A DNA stretch of 64,000 bases, taken from assembly GCA_008632985.1 (NCBI GenBank), contig QPGO01000040.1, positions 1-64,000 on the forward strand, given 5' to 3'. Every line of letters starts with the position of its first letter. Position 1 is the first letter of the stretch. Position numbers and translations under genes: made by a program. The DNA comes from Psammoneis japonica (lineage: Eukaryota). This document shows, piece by piece, positions 7,875-49,829 of the stretch. Below the pieces are notes generated by a model. The model was not told the origin of the DNA and searched no databases. It saw nothing but the letters and a program-made list of their open reading frames with translations.

Positions 7875-8089
7875 AGGACCCCGCGAATCCACACAACAAA
7901 TTTTTGCACCAACGTTTCTAGCTGAACAGCTTGGCTGGATCGTGCGTTCCCAAGCTTGGAAAGGTGGTGGAGACGGGCCTCTGCCACTCAAAAATTTTGG
8001 CGCGCTTCCACACGTGCACACAAATTGTCACAGTTGGATGGCTTGCACTCTCATCCTTCTGGGACCTGAGCCGATCATTGTTCTTGCAG

Positions 8090-9934: not shown

Positions 9935-10075
9935 GCTTTGTGCGCATGGGGCTCATTGGCATGAACAAACAAGCCTTGGCCCTGTGACAGTTCTACAATG
10001 TTGAAAATGAGGGGCATGAAGATGACAATGTCGCCGGGAAATTGTTCCTTCAATTTCAAGATCAGTTTTTCCACA
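9935..10075 (-). pseudogene. Fragment of type I mannose-6-phosphate isomerase
   Basis: LKEQFPGDIVIFMPLIFNIVELSQGQGLFVHANEPHAH matches the PMI motif YPGDxG.F....LN...L.PG.A.F..ANEPHAY, with the final Y read as H. Confidence 0.7.
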
Positions 10076-10266
10076 TTGCTGTGGTTGGCACAGGCAGCTC
10101 TTCAATGCCATTGACTCAGAGTCAAAGTCAGTTGTCAGCACATGACCCACCAAGTTGGAGGTGTGCATGGTTTGTCACTGTGGTGCATGGGCTTGGTGGG
10201 ATGGCATCATCAAAAGGAGGGATCTCAAAGCCACCATGTGTTGTGTTGCAAGCCTGTCATGCAGTG

Positions 10267-10542
10267 TGACAGAAAATGAAGGTGAATGGCAAGAATTCAA
10301 ACAACAACTCCTTGCTGCTGTCTAAACAGCAGATGAGTCTCCGCTCAGAGACCGTTGCAGGAGCCGAAAGATGTGCAAGTCGGCACAATCGGGCTACTGT
10401 CATTGTTCTTGTGAGCCTTGTGGCTCGAAAGCAAACTACATCGCACGTGAACGCGCGGAACTAAAGCACACAAAACTGTGCACGGTAAACTAAACAGCGC
10501 GCGATGCTTCGCGCGCATCCAAATCCTGTTCAAATCCTGTCA
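10267..10542 (-). repeat. 3' LTR of copy A
   Basis: Reverse complement of tgacaggatttgaacagg...cattttctgtca; preceded on the minus strand by the PPT aactggggag. Confidence 0.95.
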
Positions 10543-13500
10543 CTCCCCAGTTTGCTTGAGGAGCCACAGAAACAGATTCGACTTCGGATGGAATGAAGTT
10601 CCAGAACATGAGGGGTCGGAGAAGGTCCCAGATTTGGGAGCAACCCCAATGCTTGCTGAGAATGTCAGCAGGGTTGCGGGATCCTTCGATGAAGTGGAAC
10701 TCAAGGCAACCAGAGGCAATTGCCTCACGCACACGGTGGAACGACAGTGTGGTGTGTCGCTTGTGTAACTTGGAGTGCGGGATGGTGGCACTGTCTACAA
10801 CCGACTTGTTGTCACCGAACATGCAACTGACATCACGGATCGGGACGCCAAGGCAGCGCAGGGTGATGCGCAGGTCGACAATCTGCTCAACACAATTCCT
10901 TGCGGCAACAAATTCAGATCCGCAGGTTGCAGTCTCCACGGTGGCTTGTTTCTTGGAGAACCAATCAGCCGGGAATTTGTTGAGGAAGTGGAGCATTCCC
11001 ATGACAGAGCGTCCGGTGAGCATGCAATGGCACAAGTTTGCATCGACGCAGTGGGTGGCAGTGACGAACTTGCCAAGGGGCGGTGGAGCGTCCTTCGGGA
11101 TCATCTCTTCTGCTTCACCACACACGGAATGCATCCATTCGTAGGCCGGAGCAGGGAGATCCGAATGGTCGGGCTCTTCCGTGCGAACGCGGAGAGCACC
11201 GTGTCGCATCTTGGAGAGGCACCCACAGACGCATTTGGCACGATCCAAGTGGCCTTGACGGGGCGCAGCTCGGAAGCTAGAGAGTGACATGACGGCCGTG
11301 GAATGTCAATTCGACCAAGGGACACTGCCCATTGGAGTGAACCAACAAGAGACTGGAACTTGTGAATGCCATCGGGTCCCAGCAGTTCGGAAGTGTCCAG
11401 TTCGGGGTGGTCACCCTTCTCTAGAGGTGACAGGGCGTTGGTGGCAGGTTTCTCCCCAAACAGTCGGGCGCAGCTGTCGACCATGCGCTCGATGTACTTG
11501 CGCGGAGACAGGCACAAGGTTCCGTCGGGGTCCCGGGAAAAGTCGCAACCCAGATGGAACTCAATGGGTCCCGCACCCTTGAGCTTGAACTTGCACTTTT
11601 CCGTGAGAGTGTCGATGAAAGATTGAGGGTCCTTCATGGCAATGGCGAGGTCATCCACATAAACGGCAATGTGTTCACAGTGGTCGCCGTTCCTGCGCAT
11701 CCAAATGTCGGGTTCGGCGCGGCAGGGGAAGAAGCCTTCAGCTCGCAGGCAGTCGGCGAAGCGCTCGTGCCAGCGGAGACCGGAGCTGCGGAGTCCATGC
11801 AGTGCCTTGTGGATGACAAGGATGTGTCCTTCGAGTTTGCCAAATTCGGGTCCAGCTACAATGTAAAGCTTCTCCTTGGTGGTGGCTTCAAGGTGGGCAT
11901 TGCCAATGTCGGTGGCCCATGTCTCCAGCTCGTTGAGTTCGGCCAGGAAAATCATCAGCCGAAGGCCACGAAGGGAGACTGCTCCGGAGTGGACACTGTC
12001 GACAGGTACGTCCGTGAGGTGCCCGTCGGCTACGAGTCGTGCCTTGTGGCGACCGTCGTGTTTCACGTCGTGCACCAGGTGCACTCGGATCTTCTTGTGT
12101 CCCGCAGGAGGAGTGGAAGACTTGAAGGGCCCGCAGTCATGGAAGACTTCGTATTTGTCGAGTTGGTCCATCTCGAGATTAGTTGCGTCTCCCCACTTGC
12201 GGTTGCCGTTGCGTTCGTCTGGTGACATGGCGTGTTTGCAGTTCCGGGGAACTTCGCATCCGCACTTGCAGCGAGGTGCAGTGCGGAAGGAGCGAAGCTT
12301 GGCTTGGTTGGCCATGCGAAATAGCTTCTTTTGGCACCTCGCGATGGTGCGGAACCGCTTCCATCCATCCGTGTCGAGGAGTCCGTTCTCTCGTGCACAG
12401 ATGGCACAGGTGACGGGGTCGTCCTTGGCGATGATGGCAAGAGGCTCGGACGTGATCTCCCCACTTTCCCATTCAAGCATGATGTTGTAGCTTGAGCCTT
12501 TCCAGGTTGGGTCGTGAGGCTTCAGAGGGCCTTCGTGTGACACGATGCGTCGAAATTTCCAAACAGTGGTGTCTTCGTCTTCTTGCTCAATGTGATTCAT
12601 GATGTCATTGCAGGCAAGGACTTCCTCGTATTCGTCATTGTTGACAGAGCAGACGAACTCAGTGAGCTCGGGATTGCCGTTCACTTTCCATTCGTGGTCT
12701 TCGACGGCCTTGACGATGCGAGCTCTGTGGCGTTGTCCGTCCTCTTGTGGCTGCATGAGGAAGGTACGTCCAATGATGTCTTGCGGATCGAAAACTGGCA
12801 TCTTGGGTGTCCTGATCTCCCCATCAGGAGAATCGACGGGGTTGTCGTCATGGCGAGATTTGATGATGGGTGCAGGTGGCTCCCCATCAGGAGGATCAAG
12901 ACGCAGGTTTCGAACGGCAGGATCGGGGGTGGCGGAGCGAACGTTGGACCGGCAGGGGATCTTCTGAGTCTCGTCAGATAGAATCTTGAAGGTCATCTGG
13001 TGGCCGACGTGCTCAGCAATGCCAACGAAGCGTCCACGCAACTCACGAGATTTGGACGGCCAATCGGAGTCATCGAGGTGGAAGTGCACTGGTTCCCACC
13101 AGTGAAAGCGAAGCAATGGGCTGATGTCCGGGGTGGATCCAGTGAGAGTCTCGAGGGGCGTGCGCCAGTGGAGACGTGGGGATGCTGTGTGGTTGAGTGT
13201 GAAGCACACGTGCATGAGCGCCAGCAGCCATGTGTGGGCGGGCGAACCAAAGCGGTCCATGACAGTGTTCGCCATGCGCTTCACAGTCTGGCATCGACGC
13301 TCGGCAAAGTTTTGGTGTTGCTGGTGAGGCTCACTTTGCCAGCTGGAGATGAAGAGGGCGCGCAGGATCCCGAGCACTTTGTTGCTGATCTCAACTTGAG
13401 CACGGTCGCTAATGAGTTTGGATGGGGCACCACATTCACGGATCTGATCCTCGAGTGTGTTGACAAACTCTTTGTCCGTCTCAGTGCCGTAGACATCAGT

Positions 13501-16160
13501 GACGGTAGACTCGGTGCCAACAAACAGTTGGGCGCTGGTGCAACCAGAGTCGACGGCCGGGGTGTCGGCACAAATGGTGTCAGTGGCGACAGGCTCGTTG
13601 CGACGGTGCACATTGAGGGCGGGGTTGGGTGATTTGAAGGCCTTGCGAAGGTGTGCACCGGCGGGCATGCGGGCGCACTGCGTGGTGCAGTCAAAAGTAC
13701 GACGGACCGCATCGGCAGGTGGGAAGCCAAAGTGAGGCCGAAGAGACTCGAAGGGGGGGTCCTTGGGCTGCACAGTGCGCTCCGGAGGTGGAACGTCATC
13801 GCCCTTGGGGTCAATCGCATGCAGATGACACTCGTAGAACACGTCGTCGTTTGGAATGAGGTGATCATCGAGGGCGGACGCGTGATCGGCAGACAAGGAA
13901 GCGGACAAGATGGTCTCGTTGACAACGACACGGTGACGGCAGTTGCCGCATTCGTCAAATGGGTTGGCAGTGGGATCGTCCTGCAGGTCAGAGATCGCGT
14001 CGCACCACTGGTCATCGTCAGTGACAGAGTGATCGAGGACGGAAGGGTCCCATGTGTCATCACCGGTGAGGATGACGTGGGGCAGGGTGTCCCATTCGGC
14101 ATCAGTGTAAGGTCGCATGGCAACACAAGGCAGGCCAGCCTTGATGTCAATGGGGATGACACAGCCATCAGGAGTGGCAGTGCGTTGCAAGCCGTTGGGC
14201 ACCTTGACAGAGCGATCGTTGACATCCTGTTTGTGCCATTCGAGCTGGCCGCAGGAATGGATGGTCTTGCCCTTTCCCGTGTGTGCGCAAATGATGGAGG
14301 ATGGCGATGACGGGACCACGCTGGGTCTCAATGACGGCACCAGCGGTGACAATGGGGATGTCCACCAATTGATGATCGTCAATGCCCTGAACGTCGACTT
14401 GGCGAGAGGTGCGTGCGATGACGCGGACGTCGTTTGCCAGCAATGCCGCCGTTGGCCCCACGATCGACTAGAGCGCCAGTGCGTGTGGAGCGATGAGCAG
14501 AGGCAGAGCAAATGACATTGTGGTTGTCAACGCGGCGGCAAGTGCGGCCGTTGAGTTCCATGTCATCTGCAGAAGCTGGCGGGGTAGAGGAAGCGGCGGA
14601 TGGCCCCGGTCGACTGGCATTGGGGGCTTGGTTAGGAGACAACAGACGTTGCAGATCACCGGGTGGCAGTGGCTTGCGCTTGGTGAGGTGCGCCAGGATG
14701 GGATCACCCGAAATGGCGTCCACATGTGCAGCGGAGTCACCATGGTCAGCAGGAGTCGTGTTGGACAAGTTGACATCACTGTCACTCCCAAGGCGTTGGT
14801 CGTGAAGGTTGGCCGTAACAGACTCATGGCAGCCACTGGCTCGCGGGTTGCGGGGAGGTGGACGAGAATGCTCAAGGATGATCGCCTTGGAGGAATCGGG
14901 CAACGAATCCCAGAGCCGTTGGTGGTCGGGAGGGAGACGTCTCCATTGGACACCGGTGAGGCTGGGACCGCGGGTGCAGGCAGCATTGGCCTGAAGGACG
15001 TCAACGTCGCTGTCAATGTCGTAGAACACATCGTCGGACGGTTCCTCGGAGTGGACGTCATGTGCGCATGTGGTGCGTCGGGGAGCTCGAGGTGTCGTCT
15101 TGGGTTGAAACGTGCTGTCGTGCTGAGCTGCCGCAGAGAGGAGCAAGGCACAGCATTGATCGCATGTGAGGCTCTTGCCACTCTGCGTACGATGCTGATC
15201 AGCTTGGTTCTTGACAGCACGGAGTTCCTCGACAGGGTGCACGGCATTCTCGAGCATGACGCGCTTCTGTCCTTCAGAGAAGTGGTCACTGGCCAGGATG
15301 AGTGCCTCGCACTTGCGCAACTGGTCTTGCCAATGAAGGATGAACCCGTGGGTCGGACCTTTCCAAGTGCCATCACCAAGACGCGCGGTGGTCAGGTGCG
15401 TGAGCAGGGTGGAGGACTCGACAGATGCGCAGGTGGAGGCAAGCGCGCACTCAGACAAGGAGCGGCAGACGGTCTGTGCGTCAGAAGACCCCACATTTTC
15501 GTGAATGAGAGCCTTGCCCTTGTCGGTGAGAAGGATGCGTTCGAAGACGGCGAACATGCACTTTTGCTGTTCAGCAAAGAGCAGTTTGTCTTCGAGGCTG
15601 GTCGGTTTGTACGACGAGTCTAGAGTGCACTCGACGTCTTGGGCACGGGCTTGTGCCACAAGTGAGGTGTGCCAAGTGTGCCACTGCTTGTCGGATTTGA
15701 GAGCCGTGAAAGCGGTGGGATCACGCTTGATGCCTCGCTTGAAGTCCCGCACCGGGTCGCGTGCCTTGGTCGGGTTGGTGACATGTGGAGGTGCAAGGGG
15801 TGAGCTGCCGATGGACACAGAAGACATGCAGTCGGGGCTGAGGTGGCAGGCAAGGAACTCGTCATGCGTGAACAAAGAGGAGTCGTTGGCAACGTCAAGA
15901 CCTTTGTGTGCTTTGACAATGTACAGACTGACTGGTGCTGCTAACATGTTCTTACAACCACGGGGCAAAGGGATCACATCAGTGCCGTTGTCGCACTCAA
16001 GCGAGTCGATTTGGGACGGCATGAACGTGAACAGTTCCTGACACGAGTCCGTGCCGTCTTGGGCCAAAGCCAAACGAAGAGGACTCCCAGCACCTTGGGC
16101 AAGCACGGTTCCAACCACGTGCTCGAAACCATCGGTTTGTTGCTGACGAGTGAGAACCAT
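10490..16160 (-). pseudogene. gag-pol polyprotein of copy A, with frameshifts near 14440, 14290 and 11300
   Basis: PR ALVDRGANGG; integrase VATDT/ISDRAQVE/HQNFAERR; RT HKARLVADG, KALHGL, YVDD; RNase H CVDANL, GSEFVAA, GDNKSV, NPADILSK. Confidence 0.93.
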
Positions 16161-17085
16161 GGCAGACAAAAGTGGTGTCAGGACAATCAATTCTGGTTGG
16201 GAAGAGAAGGTGGACTCGAAACTTGGGTGAGAACAGACTTGACTTGAAACAGACTTGACTTGAAATCTTGAACCATCTTAAAATCAGAAGTCGCCGGGCT
16301 TTGTCACCCCGTTCGTTGTCAAGTGCCAAACTTCCCATCCGGTCCGCAGAGTTGTGCCGGCACGTCCGAACCCGCAGCTGGTGGCGCTTTGGGTTGCTCA
16401 CGAGCGGAGCAGCGGGTTGCAAACCCCTGCAGGTGAGCTGACCAGAGGTGGACAAGACCCCCGAACTGTTCTCATTTTATGTCGGTTGGATTTCCCGATC
16501 AGGCTGGCCAGTTGACGCAGGCGCCAGGCACTGTGGACGAACGAACAAACGTGGGAAAGCACCCTCGCCCCAACGCAGGCTGCAGTCACGGCCACTTGCT
16601 CTCACAGTCGTCCTCGTGGACCTAGTAGAACTGTAGAGCACCAGCAGTCCGGGGTAGATCAGGTGCAATGGACTCGGTGTGCTTGTAGAGTGGCAGCAAA
16701 ACCGCAGTCCGAAGAGTGGGTACAGGTTCTTGGCCGTGAAGATGTGTATATATATATATGTCTTCAGCGACGAAGATCCTTGAATGTTCAGGGTTCTTGA
16801 CCGTTAACCGATGAACAGGTATATCAAGGGATGAGGATCAAGGATAGACTTGGGTGTGACCGTTGAATGTATGTCTTCAGCGATCAAAGGTAGTATAATC
16901 GATCCAGATATCCAGCGGTAAGGAGACTTGACGGTGACGTTAACTTCCTGCCGATGCCCTGGTATTGAATGCGCGTAGACTTGCCGATGTATGTAGAACA
17001 TATACGGAGGTCCACGTAGAATTAAAAATAGCGTCGTTGGTAAATCAACGACGACGATGGCGGTTGCTCAATGGGTTGACAATGA

Positions 17086-17100
17086 GCAAGACTGTTAATC
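17086..17100 (-). promoter_or_regulatory. Putative primer-binding site of copy A (also at 18174-18188 and 31005-31019)
   Basis: GATTAACAGTCTTGC directly follows the 5' LTR; its reverse complement GCAAGACTGTTAATC resembles a tRNA-Asn(GUU) anticodon arm. Confidence 0.65.
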
Positions 17101-17376
17101 TGACAGAAAATGAAGGCGAATGGCAAGAATTCAAACAATAACTCCTTACTGCTGTCTAAACAGCAGATGAGTCTCCGCTCAGAGACCGTCACAGGAGCCG
17201 AAAGACGTGCAAGTCGGTATAATCGGGCTACTGTTGTCATTCTTGTGAGCCTTGTGGCTCGAAAGCAAACTACATCGCACGTGAACGCGCGGAACTAAAG
17301 CACACAAAACTGTGCACGGTAAACTAAACAGCGCGCGATGCTTCGCGCGCATCCAAATCCTGTTCAAATCCTGTCA
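17101..17376 (-). repeat. 5' LTR of copy A
   Basis: Same 276-bp unit; retains more TpA than the other LTR copies. Confidence 0.95.
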
Positions 17377-17897
17377 CAGTGCTGCAACTAACACAGGCTG
17401 CCACTGCTGCACCAGCAGGAGCTGACAACAACCCAAACAGGCTTTGTCACAAATGCCAGCCCTCTCTCTTCCAACAACACTCTGCTGGTGCCTGGCACTC
17501 CTTCTCATGCAACAAGTGCTCCTCCTGACATGGCCAATGACAGCCGCATGTGCAGAAGCAGGGTGTGCATGTGAGCGCGCTGTTGGCAGTCCAGCGCAAT
17601 GGCTGGGGCCAAACATTGTCAGAGGGTGTGCTGGGTTTTTTCTCAATTGGAGCTCATTGTGATGATGTTTCTGCCCAGCCATTGCAGCACCATGCTTGCC
17701 ATGATTGCCAAAATGAGTGACCAAGGAAAAAGAGGGAAGCATCTGACAAAAATCACTGGAAACAGCTGAAGTTGCAATTGAAGGCATTTTGTTGCTGGCA
17801 CTTCATTGTTGGATGCAGGGGCGGCAAACTCCAAAGTTTGTTGGCACGACAAGTGGAGGAAATCAGCACAAACACCACCAGCCCTGACCAGCAAAAG

Positions 17898-20800
17898 TGA
17901 CAGGATTTGAACAGGATTCAGGTGCGCGCAAAATGTCGCGCGCTGTTTAGTTTACCGCGCACAGATTTGTGTGCTTCAGTTCCACGCGTTCGCGCGCGAT
18001 GCAGTTTGCTTTCGAGCCACAAGGCTCACAAGAATGACAACAGCAGCCCGGTCATGCCGACTTGCACGTCTTTCGGCTCCTGCAACGGTCTCTGAGCGGA
18101 GACTCATCTGCTGTTTAGACAGCAGCAAGGAGTTGTTGTTTGAATTCTTGCCATTTGCCTTCAATTTCTGTCAGATTAACAGTCTTGCTCATTGTCAACC
18201 CATTGAGCAACCGCCATCGTCGTCGTTGATTTGCCGACGACGCCACCTCAATTCTGCGTGGACCTCCGTGTGTGTTCTACATGCGTCGGCAAGTCTGCGC
18301 GCATTCAACACCAGGCATCGGCAGGAAGTTAACGTTGCCGTCAAAGCCTCCTTGCCGCTGGATGTCTGGATTGATCACACTGCCTTTGATCGCTGAAGAC
18401 ATGCATGAACGGTCATGTCCAAGTCCACCCTTGATCCTCATCCCTTGACACACCCATTCATCGGTTGACGGTCAAGAACCCTGCATGTTCAAGGATCTTC
18501 GTCGCTGAAGACATGCATGTGTGTGCATGTCTTCACGGCCAAGAACTTGCACCCACTCTTCGGACTGCGGTTTTGCTGCCACTCTGCAAGCACACTGAGT
18601 CCATTGCACCTGATCTACCCCGGACCACTGGTGCTCTGCAGTTCTGCTGGGTCCACGAGGACAACTGTGAGAGCAAGTGGCCGTGATTGCAGCCTGCGTT
18701 GGGGCGAGGGTGTTTTCCCGCGTTTGTTCGTTCGTCCACAGCGCCCAACGCCTGCGTCAACTGGCCAGCCTGATCGGGAAATCCAACCGACATAAAATGA
18801 GAATGGTTCGGGGGTCTTGTCCACCTCTGGTCAGCTTGCCTGCAGGGGTTTGCAACCCGCCACTCCGCTCGTAAGCAACCCAAAGCGCCGCTGGCTGCGG
18901 GTTCGGACGTGCCGGCACAACTCTGCGGACCGGACAGGAAGTTTAGCACTTGACAACGAACGGGACAGCACAGCCCGGCGACTTCTGATTTTAAGACAGT
19001 CCAAGATTTCAAGTCAAGTCTAGCTCAAGTCAAGTCTTTTTCAAGCCAAGTTCCAAGTCAAAACTCCGAGTCAAGATCGCGCTCTAGATTGGTTCCTGTC
19101 TTTTGTTTCTACTGCACCGTCCTCCGTCATGGTTCTCACGCGACAGCAACAAACCGAAAGCTTCAAATGCATTCTAGGCACTGTGCTCAATCAAGACAAT
19201 GACAGCCCTCTTCGTTCTGCCCTGTCCATCAACGGGATTGAATCGTGCGAGGAATTGTTCACGTTCTCACCTGCCCAAATTGACGCCCTCACTTACAGAG
19301 ACGGCGCCAATGCAGCGCATTTGCCACAGACCCACAGAAACCTCCTAGCAGCTTTGATCAGCTTCCACTTTGTCAAAGTTTGCAACGGTGATGATGTGAC
19401 CAATGAACCCCAGTTGCTCACACCCGAGGAATTTCGCAACTGCCGCCTTGGTCCGGACCACTTGACCTCTCTAGCCACTGGCGCAGCACCCTCCGCACCT
19501 GTGCCGAGTCCCTTGCCATCCAAACCAGGTGAACCCAGTGCCATTTTGACACCAGCCTTGCACTGTGCCGCCACTCAGGTGTCCCCCAGAAGTGGTGTCA
19601 GTCGCGCCCCGCATGTCTTGACCAACCCGCCTGCAAGCAACCTCGGCCCAGTGCAGGATTGCAGCCCTTGCACAGGCCCGCACTTCAAGACCAGTTGGGA
19701 CACTCCACCCATGGCTTCCAAAGCTGCAGTCTTTGCACCCCGCAAACCACGTGCTGCCAACCTCCACGTGTCGACTGCTGTCACCCTTCACAGTCTTCGT
19801 TTGGGAAGTGATGGAGATGACAACTTGCTTCTCGTATCTCCTGATGGGGAGCCTCCTTTTCCCGTCATTGAATCTGTTCACAACATTTCAACCGGTTCAT
19901 CAGATGGGGAGTTCAGGACATCCAAGCAGCTTTGTTGTCTTCGGATCCTCCAAGCATCGCACCATGAGACTGGGCCTCCTGATTGGATGCCTCAAGTTTC
20001 GTACCTCGAGACCAGGCCTCCTGATTGGATGCCCCAAGTCTCGTACCTCGAGACCAGGCCTCCTGATTGGATGCCCCAAGTCTCGCACCTCGAGACCAGG
20101 TCTCCTGATTGGATGTCCCAAGTCTCGCACCTCGAGACTGGGCCTCCTGATTGGATGCCTCAAGTCTCGTGCCTCGAGACTGGGCCTCCTGATTGGATGC
20201 CCCAAGTGCGCACATCGAGACTGGGCCTCCTGATCGGATGCCCCAAGTCTCGTGCCTTGAGACCAGGCCTCCCAACTGGACTCTCCACGTCTCGTGCCTC
20301 AAGACCGGGCCTCCCAATTGGATCCTCCACGTCTCACACCTCAAGACTCGGCCTCCGGATTGGATCCCTCAAGTCTTGTGCCACGAGACTCGGCCTCCTG
20401 ATTGGATTCCCCAAGTCTCGCACCTCAAGACTTGGCCTCCTGATTGGATCCCCGAAGACTCGTGTCACAAGACTGGCAAGTCCTTTTGGATCCCAGAAGT
20501 CTTGCAGCACGGGACTGGTTGCCCCAATCAGACATCTGCAGCCTTGCACCACAAGATGTCTTGCTCCAATCCGATCCCCGAAGGCTTGCACCTTGAGACT
20601 CGTTTCTCCAATTGGATCAGTCTCTCAGGAGATGCAGCTGAGCTTGCAATCGGATTGGTGGAACACAAGACCACCGCTTGTGCCTTTGAACTCATGCTTG
20701 CTCTGTTCCCTGAGTCGTGCAAACGCCATGCCGCCTGCAATGTTGCCCCGCCGTTCAACATTGTCAACCAGACCAAGCTTTGCTCCTTCCATTGCAAGTG

Positions 20801-26289: not shown

Positions 26290-26399
26290 AAGCTTAGAAA
26301 TATCCTAAATGTTGATGGAACGTGTATGTCTTCTCTTAAGTTCAAAACATTACATAGTCAGATTGGCTGTACTGCATTTCTTCTCTCAGCTCGTAATCT

Positions 26400-27591: not shown

Positions 27592-27954
27592 GGTGAAATG
27601 GTGTAACGAGAGTCAACGAGAACGCTAATCAATAGCGAAAGAAATGCGGTTCACGCTGTCGCGGTCGTCTTGGCGATAAAAAAAGTGGTGGCTGATGGTT
27701 GCACTGGTGGTTACGTAGCTTCTGGTATGCTATGTACGTAGCAAGAAAATTCGCGCGCTTTTTCACGAGAGCCGCACATTTTGCGCACACGTCATCCAAG
27801 TCGAGTCGGACGATTCAAAAGGTGAAATGAAGAGCAAAATCTCCCGCCGCTTTTGGTCGTTGGTCCCTGGTCCACTGACGCAACGGCATGAATCCTTCTC
27901 TTCGATAGCTTTGACACCTCACAATTTTGCGTTCTTTCCATCATCAACACCGCA

Positions 27955-28756
27955 ATGATGTCCATCCGTGCCTTTGTCGTTGCTCTCTTGGCAACCTCTG
28001 CAGTTGCTTTTGTTCCTTCGAGCAACAAGCCGCTGTTTGCTTCCAAGCACAGCAGCACTACGCTCTCCATGTCGATGGAGCGTACTTGTAAGTGATGCGA
28101 TGGTCTTCATATTGCGAAATTGATCAACGCATCTGTTATTTTAGCAATGAACTGACGAATTCGTTTGCTTTTGATTGCTTTTATTATCTTTTACATAGAT
28201 ATTATGATCAAGGTACGAAACCGAGCCGTTTGAACACAAAGATTTGCGATTGATACAGACGAATGTCGTATACAGCATCTGACGGTACATCATTGTAATT
28301 GTTTTGTATTTCTCGTTTTATAAAAAAAAACAGCCCGACGGTGTTCAGCGCGGATTGGTGGGAAACATTGTGAATCGCTTTGAAACCAAAGGATACAAGC
28401 TTGTTGCAATGAAGACGAAACTTGCCAGCAAGGAATTGTTGGAGACGCATTACAAGGATTTGGTGGAAAAGCCCTTTTTCCCCAAGCTGCGGGATTACAT
28501 GCTGAGTGGTCCCGTTGTGTGCATGGTGTGGGAAGGCAAGGAGGCCGTGTCGACGGGTCGAAAAATGTTGGGAGCGACAAATCCTCTTGAATCCAACCCC
28601 GGAACCATTCGTGGTGATTTCTGTATTGAGGTGGGACGCAACATTTGTCATGGGTCGGATTCGGTAGAAAACGCCAACAAAGAAATTGAACTGTGGTTTG
28701 ATGAATCCGAGTTGCTTGATTGGGAATCTCATTCTCATGATTGGATTTACGAGTAG
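27955..28756 (+). CDS. NDK: Nucleoside diphosphate kinase with bipartite plastid-type presequence; exons 27955-28087, 28199-28212, 28334-28756
   Basis: Spliced sequence reads [21 protein letters not shown]...[18 protein letters not shown]...PGTIRGDF...RNICHGSDS. Confidence 0.95.
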
Positions 28757-29609
28757 GAACCGAGTAAGAGAATGTGGGAAGCACCCAAGCTAGCTACTCT
28801 GTAGAGAGAATTATCATCCTGTGTTTCGGTTTATGCTAGAGTATCGCAGCTTTGTCGTCCAAAACGATCCAAATTGCATAGGCCCTCTCTAGACAACAAG
28901 ATTGGCAACACACCTTGACACCCAGGCCAATGAATCCCCTGTATCAACCCATTCAAGGCAACTCGATATGTCATAGTCGACGCTGTCTCACAGATTACAA
29001 CAATGCCACTATCAACGGCAAGCCCACTTCTTCATTCCCCAAAAGAAATAAAGGGGATTGTGCTTGAACACGTCTTTGATTCTGGTGCCGGTATGTGACT
29101 CTGTTTCAGGAAAAAAACACAGCAATGTAATTATCAAGCAGTGTTGAGCGGCTGCACAGGATCCAAGTTATACAATGAGTAAATGGTAGAAAACATGGCT
29201 CAGTGGCATACACTTGCAACATTCTTTTTTACAGCCTCTCTAGAATAGAATAATTCTGGATCCGACTATGGCTTTATCCACCAAGCTAGAGCGTGGTGCC
29301 AAACATATTCACTACTTTTAAAGTCCATAACTGTTTTATTTGTTCCTGGTACTCTACTGTAGTCAGTGATGCTGCAAGGGAGGCAATTTTCTCGTACTTG
29401 TCGTTTCTTCAGAAGACTTACGGCTACTATTCTTTCGGCAACGATGGAAGACTCAGATCGAGCCATGCCATCACAATATCTTCTGCACTGTACCTGTAGT
29501 TCATTTTGCGTAGCGACTTAGGGATCATCACAAAACTTATCCAGGTTCAGAGTCATGAGAGTCCCTGAAACTAACACGTGCAGAAGCATGATAAAACTGA
29601 ATTGGATTA

Positions 29610-29978
29610 TTACTCCTCGTCGTTTGTATCAGCGAGGTAGTAGTGGTGGTTGTTGTATTCAAACGGCAAGTGAGCACCCTCCGGAGCATCAATCCACTTC
29701 TCATCGACTTGCTTGATTCTCGTGACTCTCAACCACTGTTCACCTCCTTCCAGAGTGAGTACTTGTCCCTTGAGCAAGGCATTGTCGTGAGGCCAATCGC
29801 CACGTGAAGTTAATTCCGTGTTGCCCGTGGGATCCTCTCTCCAAAACATACCGGTACACCCTGGGCGTCGCTTTTTCAGAGCATAAGTTCCAATACGACT
29901 CTCCAACGTGTAATTGGTAATGCGAGGCTTGTCGTTTGCACTGGCGTCGACGTTGTCCTTGCTACGGCAACTTCCCAT
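29610..29978 (-). CDS. Small hypothetical protein with N-terminal MGSC (possible dual acylation)
   Basis: Intact 122-aa ORF from MGSCRSK; normal composition including Tyr. Confidence 0.6.
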   Translation of the reverse strand: MGSCRSKDNVDASANDKPRITNYTLESRIGTYALKKRRPGCTGMFWREDPTGNTELTSRGDWPHDNALLKGQVLTLEGGEQWLRVTRIKQVDEKWIDAPEGAHLPFEYNNHHYYLADTNDEE

Positions 29979-30728
29979 GGTGAAGAACCAAGCAAAATAG
30001 ACCACTTTTGTGACCTTTTTTGGATGGACAGCTTGCCGAGTTTCATTTTTGGCATGCCAGTAGAAATTCAATGTGTTTCTACATGCGACAGTTTCTCATA
30101 CATTCGTACGAACATCACGAACTCTGCGAGCTCCAACACGAGAATAACACGAAGCACTAAGAGTTTTTGCGAGAGAGCGAATGGTGTTGCTAACACACTG
30201 TGAATGCAAAGTAAAAATGCCAAAACATTGTTGTTGCATAACATGTGGATGGTTGGTCTATCGACAGACAAAACAAATCGCCTTCAAAGCTGGTCAGAAG
30301 CTTCGACAGACTGCACAGCTCTGTTTGCATGTTGTTGCGTCGCAACAGAGGCCTGCGTCGCCCACTTTGAATCATTCTCAAATGATGACCACAGCCAGCT
30401 CCTCCACCAACATCACTGTTGTCTCCCACATCATGTTGCTGTTCAATTCAATCAATGCTCTCTGCAGCAGGAGAGCAAATGATGAGACTTCTGGCTCGTC
30501 CAACAAGATGACAACGACGCCGGCTCGACAACTCTCCAGCATTTTTGTTTCAGTCACAGATTTGTCATGTGACTGGTTGACATCCACAACCACGAATCTT
30601 TTCGAAAGCATCACTTGTTTGCACCCACAAAGCAGAGCCCTCTAAACTGCTGCTGCTGCATGGAGAGAAGGATGACAAAGCAGCCAGCCACAGCTCCTGG
30701 ATGAGCAACCAACATTTCAGAACAAGTT

Positions 30729-33700
30729 TGACAGGATTTGAACAGGATTTGGATGCGCGCGAAGCATCGCGCGCTGTTTAGTTTACCGTGCACAGTTTTG
30801 TGTGCTTTAGTTCCGCGCGTTCACGCGCGATGTAGTTTGCTTTCGAGCCACAAGGCTCACAAGAATGATGACAGTGGCCCGATCACACCGACTCACACGT
30901 CTTTTGGCTCCTGCAACGGTCTCTGAGCGGAGACTCATCTGCCATTTAGACAGCAGCAAGGAGTTGTTGTTTGAGTTCTTGCCATTTGCCTTCATTTTCT
31001 ATCAGATTGACAGTCTTGCTCATTGTCAACCCATTGAGCAACCGCCATCGTCGTCGTTGATTTACCAACGACGCCACTTCAATTCTGCGTGGACCTCCGC
31101 ACATGTTCTACATGCATCGGCAAGTCTGTGCGCATTCAATGCCAGGGCATCGGCAGGAAGTTAACGTCACCGTCAAGTCTCCTTGCCGCTGGACATCTGG
31201 ATTGATCACACCACCTTTGATCGCTGAAGACAAACATTCAACGGTCATGTCCAAGTCTGTCCTTGATCCTCATCCCTTGATGTGCCTGTTCATCGGTTGA
31301 CGGTCAAGAACCCCACATGTTCAAGGATCTTCGTCGCTGAAGACATGTGCACATGTGCATGTCTTCACGGCCAAGAACCTGCACCCACTCTTCGGACTGC
31401 GGTTTTGCTGCCACTCTACAAGCACACCGAGTCCATTGCACCTGATCTCCCCCAGACCACTGGTGCTCTGCAGTTCCACTGGGTCCACGAGGATGACTGT
31501 GAGAGCAAGCAGCCGTGACTGCAGCCTGCGTTGGGGCGAGGGTGCTTTCCCACGTTTGTTCGTTCGTCCACAGCGCCCAACGCCTGCGTCAACTGGCCAG
31601 CCTGATCGGGAAATCCAACCAACATAAAACAAGAACGGTTCGGGGGTCTTGTCCACCTCCAGTCAGCTTGCCTGCAGGGGTTTGCAACCCGCTGCTCCGC
31701 TCGTGAGCAACCCAAAGCGCCGCCAGCTGCGGGTTTGGACGTGCCGGCACAACTCTGCGGACCGGATGGGAAGTTTAGCACTTGACAACGAACGGGACAG
31801 CACAGCCCGGCGACTTCTGATTTTAAGACAGTTCAAGATTTCAAGTCAAGTCTGTTTCAAGTCAAGTCCATTCTCACCCAAGTTTCGAGTCCACCTTCTC
31901 TTCCCAACCAGAATTGATTGTCCTGACACCACTTTTGTCTGCCATGGTTCTCACTCGTCAGCAACAAACCGATGGTTTCGAGCACGTGGTTGGAACCATG
32001 CTTGCCCAAGGTGCTGGGAGTCCTCTTTGTTTGGCTTTGGCCCAAGACGGCACGGACTCGTGTCAGGAACTGTTCACGTTCATGCCATCCCAAATCGACT
32101 CACTTGAGTGCGACAACGGCACTGATGTGATCCCTTTGCCCCGTGGTTGTAAGAACATGTTAGCAGCACCAGTCAGTCTGTGCATTGTCAAAGCACACAA
32201 AGGTCTTGACGTTGCCAACGACTCCTCTTTGTTCACGCATGACGAGTTCCTTGCCTGCCGCCTCAGCCCCGACTGCATGTCTTCTGTGTCCATCGGCAGC
32301 TCACCCCTTGCACCTCCACATGTCACCAACCCGACCAAGGCACGCGACCCGGTGCGGGACTTCAAGCGAGGCATCAAGCGTGATCCCACCGCTTTCACGG
32401 CTCTCAAATCCGACAAGCAGTGGCACACTTGGCACACCTCACTTGTGGCACAAGCCCGTGCCCAAGACGTCGAGTGCACTCTAGACTCGTCGTACAAACC
32501 GACCAGCCTCGAAGACAAACTGCTCTTTGCTGAACAGCAAAAGTGCATGTTCGCCGTCTTCGAACGCATCCTTCTCACCGACAAGGGCAAGGCTCTCATT
32601 CGCGAAAATGTGGGGTCTTCTGACGCACAGACCGTCTGCCGCTCCTTGTCTGAGTGCGCGCTTGCCTCCACCCGCGCATCTGTCGAGTCCTCCACCCTGC
32701 TCACGCACCTGACCACCGCGCGTCTTGGTGATGGCACTTGGAAAGGTCCGACCCACGGGTTCATCCTTCATTGGCAAGACCAGTTGCGCAAGTGCGAGGC
32801 ACTCATCCCGGCCAGTGACCACTTCTCTGAAGGACAGAAGCGCGTCATGCTCGAGAATGCCGTGCACCCTGTCGAGGAACTCTGTGCTGTCAAGAACCAA
32901 GCTGATCAGCATCGTACGCAGAGTGGCAAGAGCCTCACACACGATCAATGCTGTGGCTTGCTCCTCTCGCGGCAGCTCAGTGTGACAGCACGTTTCAACC
33001 CAAGACGACACCTCGAGCTCCCCGACGCGCCACACACGCACATGACGTCTGCTCCGAGGAACCGTCCGACGATGTGTTCTGCGACATTGACAGCGACGTT
33101 GACGTCCTTCAGGCCAATGCTGCCCACACCCGCGGTCCCAGCCTCACCGGTGTCCAATGGAGACGTCTCCCTCCCGACCACCAACGGCTCTGGGATTCGT
33201 TGCCCGATTCCTCCAAGGCGATCATCCTTGAGCATTCTCGTCCACCTCCCCGCAACCCGCGAGCCAGTGACTGCCATGAGTCTGTTGCGGCCACCCTTCA
33301 CGACCAACGCCTTGGGAGTGACGGTGATGTCAACTTGTCCAACACGACTCCTGCTGACTGTGGTGACTCCGCTGCACATGTGGACGCCATTTCGGACAAT
33401 CCCATCCTGGCGCACCTCACCAAGCGCAAGCCACTGCCACCCGGTGATCTGCAGCGTCTGTTGTCTCCTAACCAAGCCCCCAATGCCAGTCGACCGGGGC
33501 CATCCGCCGCTTCCTCTACCCCGCCAGCTTCTGCAGATGACACAGAACTTGACGGCCGCACTTGCCGCCGCGTCAACAACCACAATGTCATTTGCTCTGC
33601 CTCTGCTCATCGCTCCACACGCACTGGCGCTCTAGTCGATCGTGGGGCCAACGGCGGCATTGCTGGCGACGACGTCCGCGTCATCGCACGCACCTCTCGC

Positions 33701-36700
33701 CAAGTCGACGTTCAGGGCATTGACGATCATCAATTGGTGGACATCCCCATTGTCACCGCTGGTGCCGTCATTGAGACCCAGTGTGGTCCCGTCATCGCCA
33801 TCCTCCATCAGTGCGCACACACGGGAAAGGGCAAGACCATCCATTCCTGCGGCCAGCTCGAATGGTGCAAACAGGATGTCAACGATCGCTCTGTCAAGGT
33901 GCCCAACGGCTTGCAACGTGTTGCCACTCCTGATGGCTGTGTCATCCCCATTGACATCAAGGCTGGCCTGCCTTGTGTTGCCATGTGACCTCACACTGAC
34001 GCCGAATGGGACACCCTGCCCCACGTCATCCTCACCGGTGATGACACATGGGACCCTTCCGTCCTCGATCACTCTGTCACTGACGATGACCAGTGGTGCG
34101 ACGCGATCTCTGACCTGCAGGACGATCCCACTGCCAACCTGTTTGACGAATGTGGCAACTGCCGTCACCGTGTCGTTGTCAACGAGACCATCTTGTCCGC
34201 TTCCTTGTCTGCCGATCACGCGTCCGCCCTCGATGATCACCTCATTCCAAATGACGATGTGTTCTGTGAGTGTCATCTGCATGCGATTGACCCCAAGGGC
34301 GATGACGTTCCACCTCCGGAGCGCACTGCACAGCCCAAGGACCCCCCCTTCGAGTCTCTTCGGCCTCACTTTGGCTTCCTGCCTGCCGATGCGGTCCGTC
34401 GTACTTTTGACTGCACCACGCAGTGCGCCCGCATGCCCGCCGGCACACACCTTCGCAAGGCCTTCAAATCACCCAACCCCGCCCTTAATGTGCACCGTCG
34501 CAACGAGCCTGTCGCCACTGACACCGTTTGTGCCGACACCCCGGCCGTCGACTCTGGTTGCACCAGCGCCCAACTGTTTGTTGGCACCGAGTCTACCGTC
34601 ACTGACGTCTGCGGCACTGAGACGGACAAAGAGTTTGTCAACACACTCGAGGATCAGATCCGTGAACGTGGTGCCCCATCCAAACTCATCAGCGACCGTG
34701 CTCAAGTTGAGATCAGCAACAAAGTGCTCGGGATCCTACGCGCCCTCTTCATCTCCAGCTGGCAAAGTGAGCCTCACCAGCAACACCAAAACTTTGCCGA
34801 GCGTCGACACCAGACTGTGAAGCGCATGGCGAACACTGTCATGGACCGCTTTGGTTTGCCCGCCCACACATGGCTGCTGGCGCTCATGTGCATGTGCTTC
34901 ATGCTCAACCATGCAGCGTCCCCACGTCTCCACTGGCGCACGCCCCTCGAGACTCTCACTGGATCCACCCCGGACATCAGCCCATTGCTTCGCTTTCACT
35001 GGTGGGAACCAGTGTGCTTCCACCTCGATGACTCCGATTGGCCGTCCGAATCTCGTGAGTTGCGTGGACGCTTCGTTGGCATTGCTGAGCACGTCGGCCA
35101 CCAGATGACCTTCAAGATTCTATCTGACGAGACTCAGAAGATCCTCTGCCGGTCCAACGTTCGCTCCGCCACCCCCGATCCTGCCGTTCGAAACCTGCGT
35201 CTTGATCCTCCTGATGGGGAGCCACCTGTGCCCATCATCAAATCTCGCCATGACGACAACCCCGTTGATTCTCCTGATGGGGAGATCAGGACACCCAAGA
35301 TGCCAGTTTTCGATCCGCAAGACATCATTGGACGCACCTTCCTCATGCAGCCACAAGAGGACGGACAACGCCACAGAGCTCGCATCGTCAAGGCCGTCGA
35401 AGACCACGAATGGAAAGTGAACGGCAATCCCGAGCTCACTAAGTTCGTCTGCTCTGTCAACAATGACGAATACGAGGAAGTCCTTGCCTGCAATGACATC
35501 ATGAATCACATTGAGCAAGAAGACGAAGACACCACCATTTGGAAATTTCGATGCATCGTGTCACACGAAGGCCCTCTGAAGCCTCACGACCCAACCTGGA
35601 AAGGCTCAAGCTACAACATCATGCTTGAATGGGAAAGTGGGGAGATCACGTCCGAGCCTCTTGCCATCATCGCCAAGGACGACCCCGTCACCTGTGCCAT
35701 CTATGCACGAGAGAACGGACTCCTCGACACGGATGGATGGAAGCGGTTCCGCACCATCGCGAGGCGCCAAAAGAAGCTATTTCGCATGGCCAACCAAGCC
35801 AAGCTTCGCTCCTTCCGCACTGCACCTCGCTGCAAGTGCGGATGCGAAGTTCCCCGGAACTGCAAACACGCCATGTCACCAGACGAACGCAACGGCAACC
35901 GCAAGTGGGGAGACGCAACTAATCTCGAGATGGACCAACTCGACGAATACGAAGTCTTCCATGACTGCGGGCCCTTCAAGTCTTCCACTCCTCCTGCGGG
36001 ACACAAGAAGATCCGAGTGCACCTGGTGCACGACGTGAAACACGACGGTCGCCACAAGGCACGACTCGTAGCCGACGGGCACCTCACGGACGTACCTGTC
36101 GACAGTGTCTGCTCCGGAGCAGTCTCCCTTCGTGGCCTTCGGCTGATGATTTTCCTGGCCGAACTCAACGAGCTGGAGACATGGGCCACCGACATTGGCA
36201 ATGCCTGCCTTGAAGCCACCACCAAGGAGAAGCTTTACATTGTAGCTGGACCCGAATTTGGCAAACTCGAAGGACACATCCTTGTCATCCACAAGGCACT
36301 GTATGGACTCCGCAGCTCCGGTCTCCACTGGCACGAGCGCTTCGCCGACTGCCTGCGAGCTGAAGGCTTCTTCCCCTGCCGCGCCGAACCCGACATTTGG
36401 ATGCGCAGGAACGGCGACCACTGTGAACACATTGCCGTTTATGTGGATGACCTCGCCATTGCCATGAAGGACCCTCAATCTTTCGTCGACACTCTCACGG
36501 AAAAGCACAAGTTCAAGCTCAAGGGTGCGGGACCCATTGAGTTCCATCTGGGTTGCGACTTTTCCCGGGACCCCGACGGAACCTTGTGCCTGTCTCCGCG
36601 CAAGTACATCGAGCGCATGGTCGACAGCTGCGCCCGACTGTTTGGGGAGAAACCTGCCACCAACGCCCTGTCACCTCTAGAGAAGGGTGACCACCCCGAA

Positions 36701-37835
36701 CTGGACACTTCCGAACTGCTGGGACCCGATGGCATTCACAAGTTCCAGTCTCTTGTTGGTTCACTCCAATGGGCAGTGTCCCTTGGTCGAATTGACATCA
36801 CCACGGCCGTCATGTCACTCTCTAGCTTCCGAGCTGCGCCCCGTCAAGGCCACTTGGATCGTGCCAAACGCGTCTGTGGGCACCTCTCCAAGATGCGACA
36901 CGGTGCTCTCCGCGTTCGCACGGAAGAGCCCGACCATTCGGATCTCCCTGCTCCTGCCTGCGAATGGATGCATTCCGTGTATGGTGAAGCAGAAGAGATG
37001 ATCCCGAAGGACGCTCCACCGCCCCTTGGCAAGTTCGTCACTGCCACCCACTGCGTCGATGCAAACTTGCACCATTGCATGCTCACTGGACGCTCTGTCA
37101 TGGGAATGCTCCACTTCCTCAACAAATTCCCGGCTGATTGGTTCTCCAAGAAACAAGCCACCATAGAGACTGCAACCTGCGGATCTGAATTTGTTGCCGC
37201 AAGGAATTGTGTTGAGCAGATTGTCGACCTGCGCATCACCCTGCGCTGCCTTGGCGTCCCGATCCGTGGTGTCAGTTACATGTTCGGTGACAACAAGTCG
37301 GTTGTAGACAGTGCCACCATCCCGCACTCCAAGTTACACAAGCGACACACCGCACCATCGTTCCACCGTGTGCGTGAGGCAATTGCCTCTGGTTGCCTTG
37401 AGTTCCACTTCATCGAAGGATCCCGCAACCCTGCTGACATTCTCAGCAAGCATTGGGGTCACTCCCAAATCTGGGACCTTCTCCGACCCCTCATGTTCTG
37501 GAACTTCATTCCATCCGAAGTCGAATCTGTTTCTGTGGCTCCTCAAGCAAACTGGGGAGTGACAGGATTTGAACAGGATTTGGATGCGCGCGAAGCATCG
37601 CGCGCTGTTTAGTTTGCCGTGCACAGTTTTGTGTGCTTTAGTTCCGCGCGTTCACGCGCGATGCAGTTTGCTTTCGAGCCACAAGGCTCACAAGAACAAT
37701 GACAGTGGCCCGATTGCACCGACTCACACGTCTTTCGGCTCCTGTGACGGTCTCTGAGCGGAGACTCATCTGCTGTTTAGACAGCAGCAAGGAGTTGTTG
37801 TTTGAATTCTTGCCATTTGCCTTCAATTTCTGTCA
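30729..37835 (+). mobile_element. Ty1/copia (CoDi-like) LTR retrotransposon, copy C; full length (7107 bp), defective
   Basis: LTRs at 30729-31004 and 37560-37835; TSD AAGTT at 30724-30728 and 37836-37840; PBS and PPT present; colinear with copy A. Confidence 0.97.
31944..37612 (+). pseudogene. gag-pol polyprotein of copy C, with a frameshift near 32965 and a CGA->TGA stop at 33986
   Basis: Same PR, IN, RT and RH motifs as copy A in ORFs 31914..33635, 32948..33988 and 34193..37612. Confidence 0.93.
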
Positions 37836-38050
37836 AAGTTTTCCTTGGGATCGGGCTAAATTCACTGTCATGCCACCAATTTAAGCTCTTCTGAGTCATC
37901 CACACTGGTTGCATTTGCCAGAGTTCTGCCAAAGTAACTTCCAATGGGGCCAACGCGTCATTTGCGGTTCTTGCATCCACGGACACATTCAGGGCAAGTC
38001 CTCCTTGGCCTCTCCAGCTGACTCCGCCATCATGCCAACACATTGAGAGC

Positions 38051-49730: not shown

Positions 49731-49829
49731 CGTTGGCTGTTGCTCGAAGTGGTTTTTAGCAAAGATTCAGATGATGCGACGTCGCGTTACGAGTTGTTGC
49801 GAAATCCAAAATTCCAACAAATGGGGATG

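Follow-up and report, generated by a model that had tools for sequence, protein, structure and literature searches.

The stretch of DNA analysed here (the window: 64,000 nucleotides, positions 1 to 64,000 of the forward strand of contig QPGO01000040.1 from Psammoneis japonica) consists of intron-poor host genes and an island of nested mobile elements. The subject of this report is the loss of the dinucleotide TpA (TA) from the transposon DNA of the window, with the host genes spared. This observation, made in an earlier note on the same DNA that read it as the mark of a repeat-targeted, adenine-editing genome defence, is confirmed. The host genes, which are long uninterrupted reading frames, encode a Strawberry-notch helicase, a 1,434-aa ABC-like protein, a histidine phosphatase, a GLTP protein, two tandem FG-GAP paralogues and an NDK. 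The mobile DNA includes three elements, called here copies A, B and C, and several depleted blocks. The features to which the argument refers are the following (dinucleotide values are observed/expected ratios; LTR, long terminal repeat; ORF, open reading frame).

10267 to 17377, minus strand: Copia copy A, with LTRs at 10267-10543 and 17101-17377, a 5-bp target-site duplication CAGTG and RVT_2 in ORF 11101-14526; TpA 0.15 in the body 10267-16477.
16478 to 17377, minus strand: spared 5' 900 bp of copy A (5' LTR, leader and start of the internal region), with 45 TA and TpA 0.80, ending at the element edge.
30729 to 37835, plus strand: Copia copy C, with LTRs at 30729-31005 and 37559-37835, target-site duplication AAGTT and RVT_2 in ORF 33989-37612; TpA 0.15, CpG 0.90, GC content 0.566.
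17898 to 22775, plus strand: copy B, a non-autonomous Copia relative with three LTRs at 17898-18173, 21995-22270 and 22500-22775, a 42-nt tandem array at 19874-21596 and target-site duplication AAAAG; TpA 0.11, CpG 0.68.
5345 to 10266: older TA- and CpG-depleted block; TpA 0.05, CpG 0.43, TpG/CpA 1.7.
8589-8915 and 7921-8490, minus strand: RING (zf-C3HC4, 23.5 bits) and IBR (27.4 bits) matches; both lie inside the block 5345-10266, each in a frame of its own.
17378 to 17897: spacer between A and B; 1 TA in 520 bp, CpG 0.17.
22776 to 23598: depleted block right of B; TpA 0.04, CpG 0.22.
30260 to 30728: depleted block left of C; TpA 0.03.
49789 to 52141: depleted block with a host gene on either side; TpA 0.05, CpG 0.39, without any Pfam match.
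57355 to 60535: depleted block between the FG-GAP paralogues; TpA 0.03, CpG 0.29, and a weak, below-cutoff DDE_Tnp_4 match at 57552-58304 (plus strand).
1 to 429: depleted block at the window edge; 0 TA in 429 bp, with 215-359 being 81% complementary to 58406-58550.
54952 to 63330, plus strand: tandem host FG-GAP paralogues (control), aligned over 54952-57300 and 61016-63330, with ORFs 54952-56754 and 61016-62818; normal TA and an ordinary substitution spectrum.

Copies A and C have LTRs of 277 bp and are 96-98% alike, and A, B and C alike are bordered by perfect 5-bp target-site duplications. Copy B is a non-autonomous derivative of the Copia family: its three LTRs lie within the single target-site duplication AAAAG, and its interior, mostly the 42-nt tandem array, has no reverse transcriptase. 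The spacer 17378-17897 is the old depleted matrix that received the A and B insertions. Apart from the RING, IBR and DDE_Tnp_4 matches, no gene is recognisable in the older blocks that surround and separate the elements. The weak match in block 57355-60535 suggests a DNA-transposon relic, to which the edge piece 1-429 is related. As for the RING/IBR region 7921-8915, it looks like a RING-between-RING E3 ligase pseudogene, or else a gene captured by an element.

The depleted blocks total 29,007 bp and contain 151 TpA, versus 1,174 in 28,300 bp of host sequence; the ratios are 0.00-0.15 by block versus 0.56-0.60 in host segments. For TpG and CpA the old blocks give ratios of 1.6-2.06 and the Copia bodies 1.3-1.5, compared with 1.14-1.21 for the host. 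Counted per 500 bp, the mobile blocks hold 0-8 TpA and most host bins 9-32; the longest TA-free run measures 1,445 bp, and the gap from one TA to the next in host DNA has a mean of 24 bp and a maximum of 258 bp. Depletion in the non-Copia blocks is at least as strong as in Copia, the older ones having TpA 0.00-0.05 and CpG 0.17-0.53. The edges are sharp, and we found no leakage into the flanks, the pooled host TpA ratio being 0.58 at 0-499 bp from a block and 0.60 beyond 3 kb; the restriction of the TA loss to transposon and repeat DNA, as claimed in the earlier note, thus stands.

The loss depends on the neighbouring bases. The depleted/host ratio is 0.03 for ATA/TAT, 0.13 for GTA/TAC, 0.18 for CTA/TAG and 0.19 for TAA/TTA. 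Among the TAs left in depleted blocks there is no ATAT, and TTAA, CTAG and TTAG/CTAA are enriched two- to three-fold; of three TTTAG motifs that persist in five or more of the seven LTRs, one is found in all seven. As to whether the flank that counts lies 3' of the adenine or 5' of the thymine, 7 versus 3 one-sided events are too few to decide, and the products ACA/TGT (1.21) and ATG/CAT (1.18) rise alike.

The FG-GAP paralogues show what ordinary divergence looks like in the same window. Their alignment has 1,954 identical columns out of 2,423 (about 81%, with blocks of 80-97% identity), and the 287 substitutions divide into 149 transitions and 138 transversions; 223 of them fall outside swaps among the pyrimidine-purine (YR) dinucleotides TA, TG, CA and CG, and only four sites oppose TG to CA. 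The tandem duplication has a spacing of about 6.07 kb, with the TA-free DDE_Tnp_4-like relic 57355-60535 lying between the two copies; the duplication may have been mediated by this element, or the element may have invaded later.

The comparison of A with C is of a very different kind. Over 7,112 alignment columns (6,876 identical) they differ by 230 substitutions, that is 221 transitions and nine transversions, and 207 of these lie within 156 YR swap sites, leaving 23 outside. At 51 swap sites one copy has TG and the other CA; at 55, TA is opposed to TG or CA (A having the TA at 45 and C at 10); at the remaining 50, CG is opposed to TG or CA. The first two classes make up 106 of the 156. At the protein level, 1,807 codons were compared and 67 differ nonsynonymously, including 11 Cys/His, seven Cys/Tyr and two His/Tyr differences, so that the Cys/His/Tyr dimorphism described in the earlier note is real.

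The process leaves a paradoxical trace on reading frames. In mutated DNA the six-frame density of TAA plus TAG falls from 32 to 8 per kb and TGA stays at about 40. Since TAA and TAG are erased and the change is unable to create a stop, dead copies keep open frames that can be as long as 1,207 codons, and spurious ones appear in number on both strands. In Copia A, for example, the minus strand has overlapping frames of 1,141, 632 and 348 codons, and the plus strand has one of 383. The GC content is also raised, at 0.57 in the Copia body versus 0.50 in the spared patch. The sequence comparison supports the idea that the elements would have been inactivated by missense load, with conserved Tyr replaced and no new stop codons, as the earlier note had put it. 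There is a practical side to this: gene prediction is misled by the false long ORFs and the raised local GC, and so are age estimates of transposons that use LTR divergence.

In which direction did these changes go? The spared patch 16478-17377 of copy A is in a near-ancestral state and can be used to polarise the changes in C and B. Over 1,100 columns in which A, C and B are aligned there are 82 YR-swap sites versus 23 other variable columns, and TA is kept by at least one copy at 40 of the 82; the TA counts are 46 in A, 13 in C and 11 in B. Wherever A retains TA, every polarised change is TA to TG or TA to CA. At 32 sites TA is present in A and mutated in both C and B, in the same direction at 18 and in opposite directions at 14, which fits independent hits with a near-equal choice of strand. 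One LTR tetranucleotide reads TATA, TGTG, CACA, TGCA, CATG, TGTG and TGTG in the seven LTRs.

Conserved residues tell the same story. We used 45 of the 66 homologues of 1,800-1,960 aa found among 120 listed matches (60-71% identity), and columns conserved at 80% or more. Copy C retains Tyr at seven of 28 conserved Tyr columns (the others are 14 Cys, five His and two Phe) and copy A at four of 23 (eight Cys, seven His, two Phe, one Ala, one Asn), when C retains 524 of 570 other conserved residues. Conserved Arg is mostly retained: C has kept 44 of 46 and A 33 of 38, which means that the Cys and His are not derived from CGY codons. Tyr makes up 0.83% of C and 0.79% of A overall, as against 3.03-4.97% in all 120 listed homologues. 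Taken together, the tetranucleotide, the Tyr columns and the 32 sites support the view, already expressed in the earlier note, that the TG/CA dimorphism would come from an ancestral TA struck independently on either strand.

These data also dispose of the idea that the elements have always been poor in TA, either because they came from a TA-poor donor or because TA was selected against. The low TA itself is what this explanation has in its favour, and nothing more. It is refuted by the sites at which A keeps TA and C and B have TG or CA, by the replacement of conserved catalytic Tyr, by the Tyr content of 3.0-5.0% in all 120 listed homologues and by the depletion of unrelated element types; we consider it practically without any chance of being right.

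TpA is not the only dinucleotide to have suffered. At the CpG-variable sites CG is mostly the majority state, with TG or CA as singletons, and by parsimony at least 13 of 20 were ancestrally CG. In copy C none of 62 conserved His, Gln, Cys or Trp has become Arg and two of 46 conserved Arg have become Cys or His, which indicates that CpG has been lost and not gained. From the counts over the 1,100 columns we estimate, roughly, a per-site loss of about 74% for TA and about 8% for CpG, a ten-fold difference or so. A second, slower decay of CpG to TpG or CpA thus seems to operate in the same DNA, and it fails to explain the TA loss. It resembles the decay caused by deamination of 5-methylcytosine, with CpG ratios of 0.17-0.68 in the older blocks and B and 0.90 in the bodies of A and C; unlike what we see, however, 5-methylcytosine decay cannot remove TpA.

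The two LTRs of one element give access to the timing. Those of A differ at 12 positions, all YR swaps, and those of C at 14, of which 12 are YR swaps (24 of 26 in all); at seven sites the two LTRs of one element are opposed as TG and CA. LTRs are identical at insertion, and because they now differ almost only by YR swaps the change should follow integration. On this reading of the sequences, most of the divergence since insertion would be due to this process acting on integrated DNA. The polarised events are TG:CA = 26:19 in C and 22:15 in B, and runs tests found no strand-coordinated clusters (21 runs versus 22.95 expected, 25 versus 26.0 and 16 versus 18.8). A random order of TG and CA argues against the editing of one exposed strand, be it in RNA, in cDNA or in a transcription bubble.

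One could nevertheless imagine that the copies arrived already mutated, through A-to-I editing of the element RNA by an ADAR-like enzyme or through deamination of the cDNA. The body of the A/C ancestor was already TA-poor, so that mutated templates must have been transcribed and copied, and there is a slight excess of A to G on the sense strand (the 26:19 and 22:15 just mentioned, and 22 Cys versus 12 His at conserved Tyr). But RNA editing would mark the sense strand only, and T to C on that strand is nearly as common (19 of 45 and 15 of 37 events). Editing before integration does not account for 24 of 26 differences of this kind between the LTRs of single elements, nor for the DDE_Tnp_4-like relic, the spacers and the untyped blocks, which are depleted even more, and the strand-coordinated runs to be expected of single-strand cDNA editing are missing. 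ADAR and APOBEC do produce clustered transitions in mobile elements, and are deaminases; their substrates are RNA or single-stranded cDNA and the mark is left on one strand, whereas here both strands are affected, after integration, and in non-retroelements too. APOBEC moreover makes C to T or G to A, and here the change is A to G. We regard editing before integration as very unlikely. The LTR pairs, the DNA-transposon-like relic and the untyped blocks speak instead for action on double-stranded DNA within the genome, as the earlier note had supposed.

The history of the family is nevertheless more complicated than a series of intact copies, each mutated where it landed. In the last 6,100 or so A/C columns the TA loss is mostly common to both copies, with only 37 dimorphic and 21 one-sided sites, and this shared loss in the bodies was presumably inherited from an already mutated source copy; their common ancestor was TA-rich over the first 1,000 columns. 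The source copy would thus have been mutated in its coding body and intact in its LTR and leader. Copies with ruined proteins may have been mobilised in trans as long as their cis-acting ends were intact, and selection among elements may then have preserved a clean 5' end. Another process that would fit is recombination between co-packaged RNAs. Copy A itself is a case in point: next to its spared 5' 900 bp, both the remainder of the element and the adjoining outer DNA are almost TA-free, and the A/C ancestor had the same mosaic. Selection for intact cis-acting ends, recombination during reverse transcription and promoter-proximal protection are all possible causes of such a patch, which also fits an uneven activity of the mutator.

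The earlier note knew of no described system of this type. This is now outdated. In a 2026 preprint, viral DNA integrated in the genome of Bigelowiella natans is reported to hypermutate de novo from TpA to TpG/CpA (Mettrop et al., bioRxiv 10.64898/2026.01.13.699255). There, 231 of 302 new nuclear mutations in mutation-accumulation lines fell in integrated giant-virus and virophage regions, and 230 of these 231 were A to G or T to C, all at TpA, in 11 of 15 lines. The preprint also describes 124 clusters poor in TpA and rich in CpA and TpG, and an enrichment of DDE and reverse-transcriptase domains among coding sequences that are TpA-poor; its main target is one viral insertion present in single copy, the signature was called from Illumina data, and the authors favour adenine deamination, with an ADAT2-like protein as the candidate enzyme (10.64898/2026.01.13.699255).

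The two cases are alike in that nearly all changes are A to G or T to C at TpA, on both strands, in foreign DNA only, the surrounding genome being normal. The long-term trace (TpA-poor, CpA- and TpG-rich) is also shared, although the TpG/CpA ratios of 1.3-1.5 in the Copia bodies are slightly under the second cut-off of the preprint. By analogy, we infer that the same kind of process is at work in both. They differ in host, which is a probable diatom here and not a chlorarachniophyte; in targets, which here are an abundant Copia family, its non-autonomous derivative and transposon relics, all near saturation; and in degree, with Rho TpA at 0.03-0.15 here versus 0.45 in the nucleocytoplasmic large DNA virus region of B. 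natans. The evidence is comparative only in our case, and consists of de novo mutations in mutation-accumulation lines in theirs. What we add to the preprint is the hierarchy of flanks (ATA/TAT most sensitive; TTAA, CTAG and TTAG least), the random order of strands, the absence of leakage into flanks and the co-occurring CpG decay, the last absent from the preprint; the words diatom, stramenopile, LTR, retrotransposon, trinucleotide and context do not occur in its main text (10.64898/2026.01.13.699255). A literature search, which left most subscription journals outside its reach, returned the signature only in this preprint, and no title or abstract opening among those listed dealt with it in diatoms or other stramenopiles. 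The present case looks like a second, distant carrier lineage with different main targets.

There is a hint of further carriers. Among the best 150 of 48,095 representative proteins that match Copia C, four have less than 2% Tyr. Three of these, all Copia reverse-transcriptase fragments from other metagenome assemblies (ENA, JGI), have lost their conserved Tyr in the expected way: P0387 keeps none of 10 (six His, two Cys, two Arg; its cluster has four members on 13 contigs), P0359 none of 14 (nine Cys, four His, one Phe) and P0307 three of 12 (five Cys, three His, one Phe), when six ordinary fragments keep from 11 of 16 to 13 of 13. The fourth, P0377 (Tyr 1.5%), has no Tyr to Cys/His pattern. 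The two Arg of P0387 suggest a two-step path from TA through CA or TG to CG. We take the three proteins as a lead to further families or organisms that carry the signature. One metagenome locus, with 49% identity to the Copia C protein, was set aside: its TpA ratio is 0.60, so it is not hypermutated, and it is too distant to polarise changes.

Could all this be an artefact, modified bases in transposons being misread by the platform, or repeats being mis-assembled? The platform is absent from the record, and the four sequencing runs that we compared, available as contigs, come from one sample of one study, which may be the source of the assembly; this is what an artefact has on its side. In run X1, two contigs (2,714 and 4,496 nt) over unique DNA show one and two differences, and over the repeats there are 318 transition places and 49 transversion places. 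We examined 40 of 378 variant rows: 33 lie in Copia C, and 29 of these are YR swaps, of which 11 are single changes to TA in other copies, 10 make up five TG/CA double changes, and five set TG or CA in C against CG in almost every copy. The variants are fixed differences between copies (TG versus CA at the same site), found also in separate contigs of high depth. The target-site duplications are intact, three of the best 150 Copia cluster representatives carry the same Tyr to Cys/His replacements in other assemblies, and the B. natans preprint has the same signature from Illumina data (10.64898/2026.01.13.699255). An artefact is to our mind highly improbable.

The same run informs on abundance, which bears on a trigger of the kind known from repeat-induced point mutation (hereafter RIP). 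In ascomycete fungi RIP changes C to T, mostly at CpA, creates TpA and stop codons, lowers GC, and is triggered by duplicated stretches some hundreds of bp long with an identity of about 80% or above; its machinery is of the RID/Dim-2 cytosine methyltransferase type and works before meiosis. Like RIP, the process seen here points to a genome-borne mutator making transitions at a preferred dinucleotide in transposons and sparing genes; unlike RIP, it destroys TpA, erases TAA and TAG, makes no stops, raises GC and, in this window, does not leak into flanks. Depth was summed over X1 contigs for the region 18001-38000, and such sums are not equal to copy number. Bins that are wholly TA-poor reach 1,600-101,000. 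In bins 23337-30006 the sums are 59-84; these bins are TA-normal apart from an initial 262 bp that belong to the TA-poor block 22776-23598. Summed depth drops from 12,380 in bin 22670-23336 to 84 in bin 23337-24003, and in bin 30007-30673, which covers most of block 30260-30728, it is 1,617 versus about 61 in the adjacent unique bins. Over Copia C it is 65,000-101,000, about a thousand-fold that of unique DNA, and the family is probably a major part of the genome.

A "reverse RIP", in which homology between repeats would be the trigger with a different base change, thus has the coincidence between TA-poor and multi-copy DNA on its side: the TA-poor bins of 18001-38000 are multi-copy by depth, the single-copy bins 23337-30006 are TA-normal past their first 262 bp, and the family is very abundant (65,000-101,000 versus about 61 in unique DNA, depth again not being copy number). 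Yet the FG-GAP pair, with 1,954 of 2,423 columns identical and blocks of 88-97% identity, keeps normal TA and a 149/138 ratio of transitions to transversions, and the LTR-bearing 5' 900 bp of copy A keep 45 TA despite an LTR present seven times within 28 kb. The main target in B. natans is a single-copy viral insertion (10.64898/2026.01.13.699255). We find a homology trigger rather unlikely. The part of the earlier note that called the process repeat-targeted can be kept in the sense that it is restricted to transposon and repeat DNA; as a statement about a homology trigger it is unsupported, the FG-GAP pair having no signature and the LTR-bearing patch being spared. It follows from these comparisons that RIP, 5-methylcytosine decay, ADAR and APOBEC each miss a defining feature as an account of the TA loss.

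What we propose is the following. Integrated transposon DNA would undergo a local, TpA-specific A:T to G:C hypermutation that leaves neighbouring genes untouched; each TpA would be hit independently on either strand and become TpG or CpA, until almost none remain, and a slower decay of CpG to TpG or CpA would proceed in parallel in the same DNA. That a TpA-specific mutator acts in situ on integrated transposon DNA is in our opinion likely. We are more tentative on the chemistry, for which adenine deamination is the favoured candidate, at a little less than even odds: adenine would be converted enzymatically to hypoxanthine, read as G, and the likely agent would be a TadA/ADAT2-like deaminase. 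The natural tRNA substrate of TadA/ADAT2 is A34 preceded by U33. ADAR prefers a U 5' of the edited A (as cited in 10.64898/2026.01.13.699255). The enzyme would be recruited by silent chromatin or by small RNAs of the transposons and not by the pairing of repeats; chromatin or small RNA is favoured here because the paralogue pair and the LTR patch are spared and the B. natans target is single-copy, and we hold the chances of such guidance to be evenly balanced. Our Pfam scan of 98 ORFs from depleted blocks, 57 from host segments and three from Copia found no deaminase, methyltransferase or polymerase, in agreement with the earlier note, which saw no enzyme for the process in the window; it returned only RING, IBR, NDK and a weak DDE_Tnp_4, with a few other low-scoring matches taken as chance.

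There is, however, a second chemistry that fits. TpA is its own reverse complement, and A to G on one strand is for this reason indistinguishable from T to C on the other. The thymine could be modified instead, by TET/JBP-like oxidation at TpA to 5-hydroxymethyl- or 5-formyluracil, which mispairs with G and gives T to C (CpA on one strand, TpG on the other). All the swap, polarity and strand counts fit T to C equally well, and the parallel CpG decay is likewise a change at the 5' pyrimidine of a YpR palindrome. In dinoflagellate DNA, 5-hydroxymethyluracil is found preferentially at TpA. On the other hand, we know of no oxidised-thymine system with near-saturating T to C, and the authors of the B. 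natans preprint favour adenine deamination with an ADAT2-like candidate (10.64898/2026.01.13.699255). We consider thymine oxidation unlikely, though it means that the adenine editing of the earlier note is one of two fitting chemistries.

Several points weigh against the proposed in-situ mutator, and should be acknowledged together. Activity in situ is argued from the LTR pairs and from analogy with the preprint, and reverse transcription is another stage at which the two LTRs of a pair could, in principle, come to differ. With CpG involved at 50 of the 156 A/C swap sites, TpA does not make up the whole of the signature. The sequencing runs are not independent of the assembly if their sample was its source, and in three X1 rows most copies have TG or CA where C has CG, the polarity there being ambiguous. 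Finally, mutated copies still transpose, which weakens the word "defence" if an effective block is meant; as a defence the process is leaky, mutated copies having kept spreading and the family being very abundant. On balance the earlier reading is partly supported.

If the in-situ mutator is accepted, it is of some general interest. A:T to G:C change at one dinucleotide, in mobile DNA only, runs against the usual GC-to-AT mutation bias. A near-saturated signature in a probable diatom suggests that the process is not confined to one species, and LTR retrotransposons and transposon relics are added as clear targets. The data also constrain the enzyme, which would act after integration, on both strands site by site, with a preference for ATA/TAT, sparing TTAA, CTAG and TTAG, and without spreading into flanks. 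A natural double-strand A-to-G DNA editor would interest those who work on genome defence and on base-editing technology. One may go further and suppose that the mutators of the probable diatom and of B. natans are one inherited system, a chromatin- or RNA-guided editor of adenine (or thymine) at TpA in double-stranded nuclear DNA, widespread in the stramenopile, alveolate and rhizarian lineages and perhaps beyond. We find this possible but doubtful. If it were true, nature would possess a double-stranded DNA A:T to G:C editor and a genome defence by missense load with frames left open, and two distant carriers would make the enzyme findable by comparing the gene content of carriers and non-carriers.

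A few words can be added on the host. The Strawberry-notch fragment has its best named match at 51% identity in Thalassiosira sp. (best match overall 55%) and the histidine phosphatase at 39% in Epithemia clementina (best overall 62%); for one ORF without a Pfam match, the top Atlas match is weak (score 0.86) and belongs to a cluster whose commonest phylum is Bacillariophyta. The long uninterrupted genes of the window fit diatoms and not B. natans, whose genes are intron-rich. None of the matches bore the name of B. natans and none came near 100% identity; we therefore regard the host as a probable diatom, distinct from the sequenced B. natans. The ORF 43929-48233 (minus strand), 1,434 aa uninterrupted, has an unusual architecture, with a long, Gln/Pro-rich N-terminal half of low complexity and only a weak ABC_tran match near its C-terminus (E 4e-4, below the cut-off). 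Two host ORFs contain in-frame tandem repeats: one at 42596-43033, with four copies of a 102-108 nt unit that encodes a coiled-coil-like peptide, and the other in ORF 24892-26289 (465 aa, no Pfam match), where a 27-nt unit is repeated eight times at 25375-25664.

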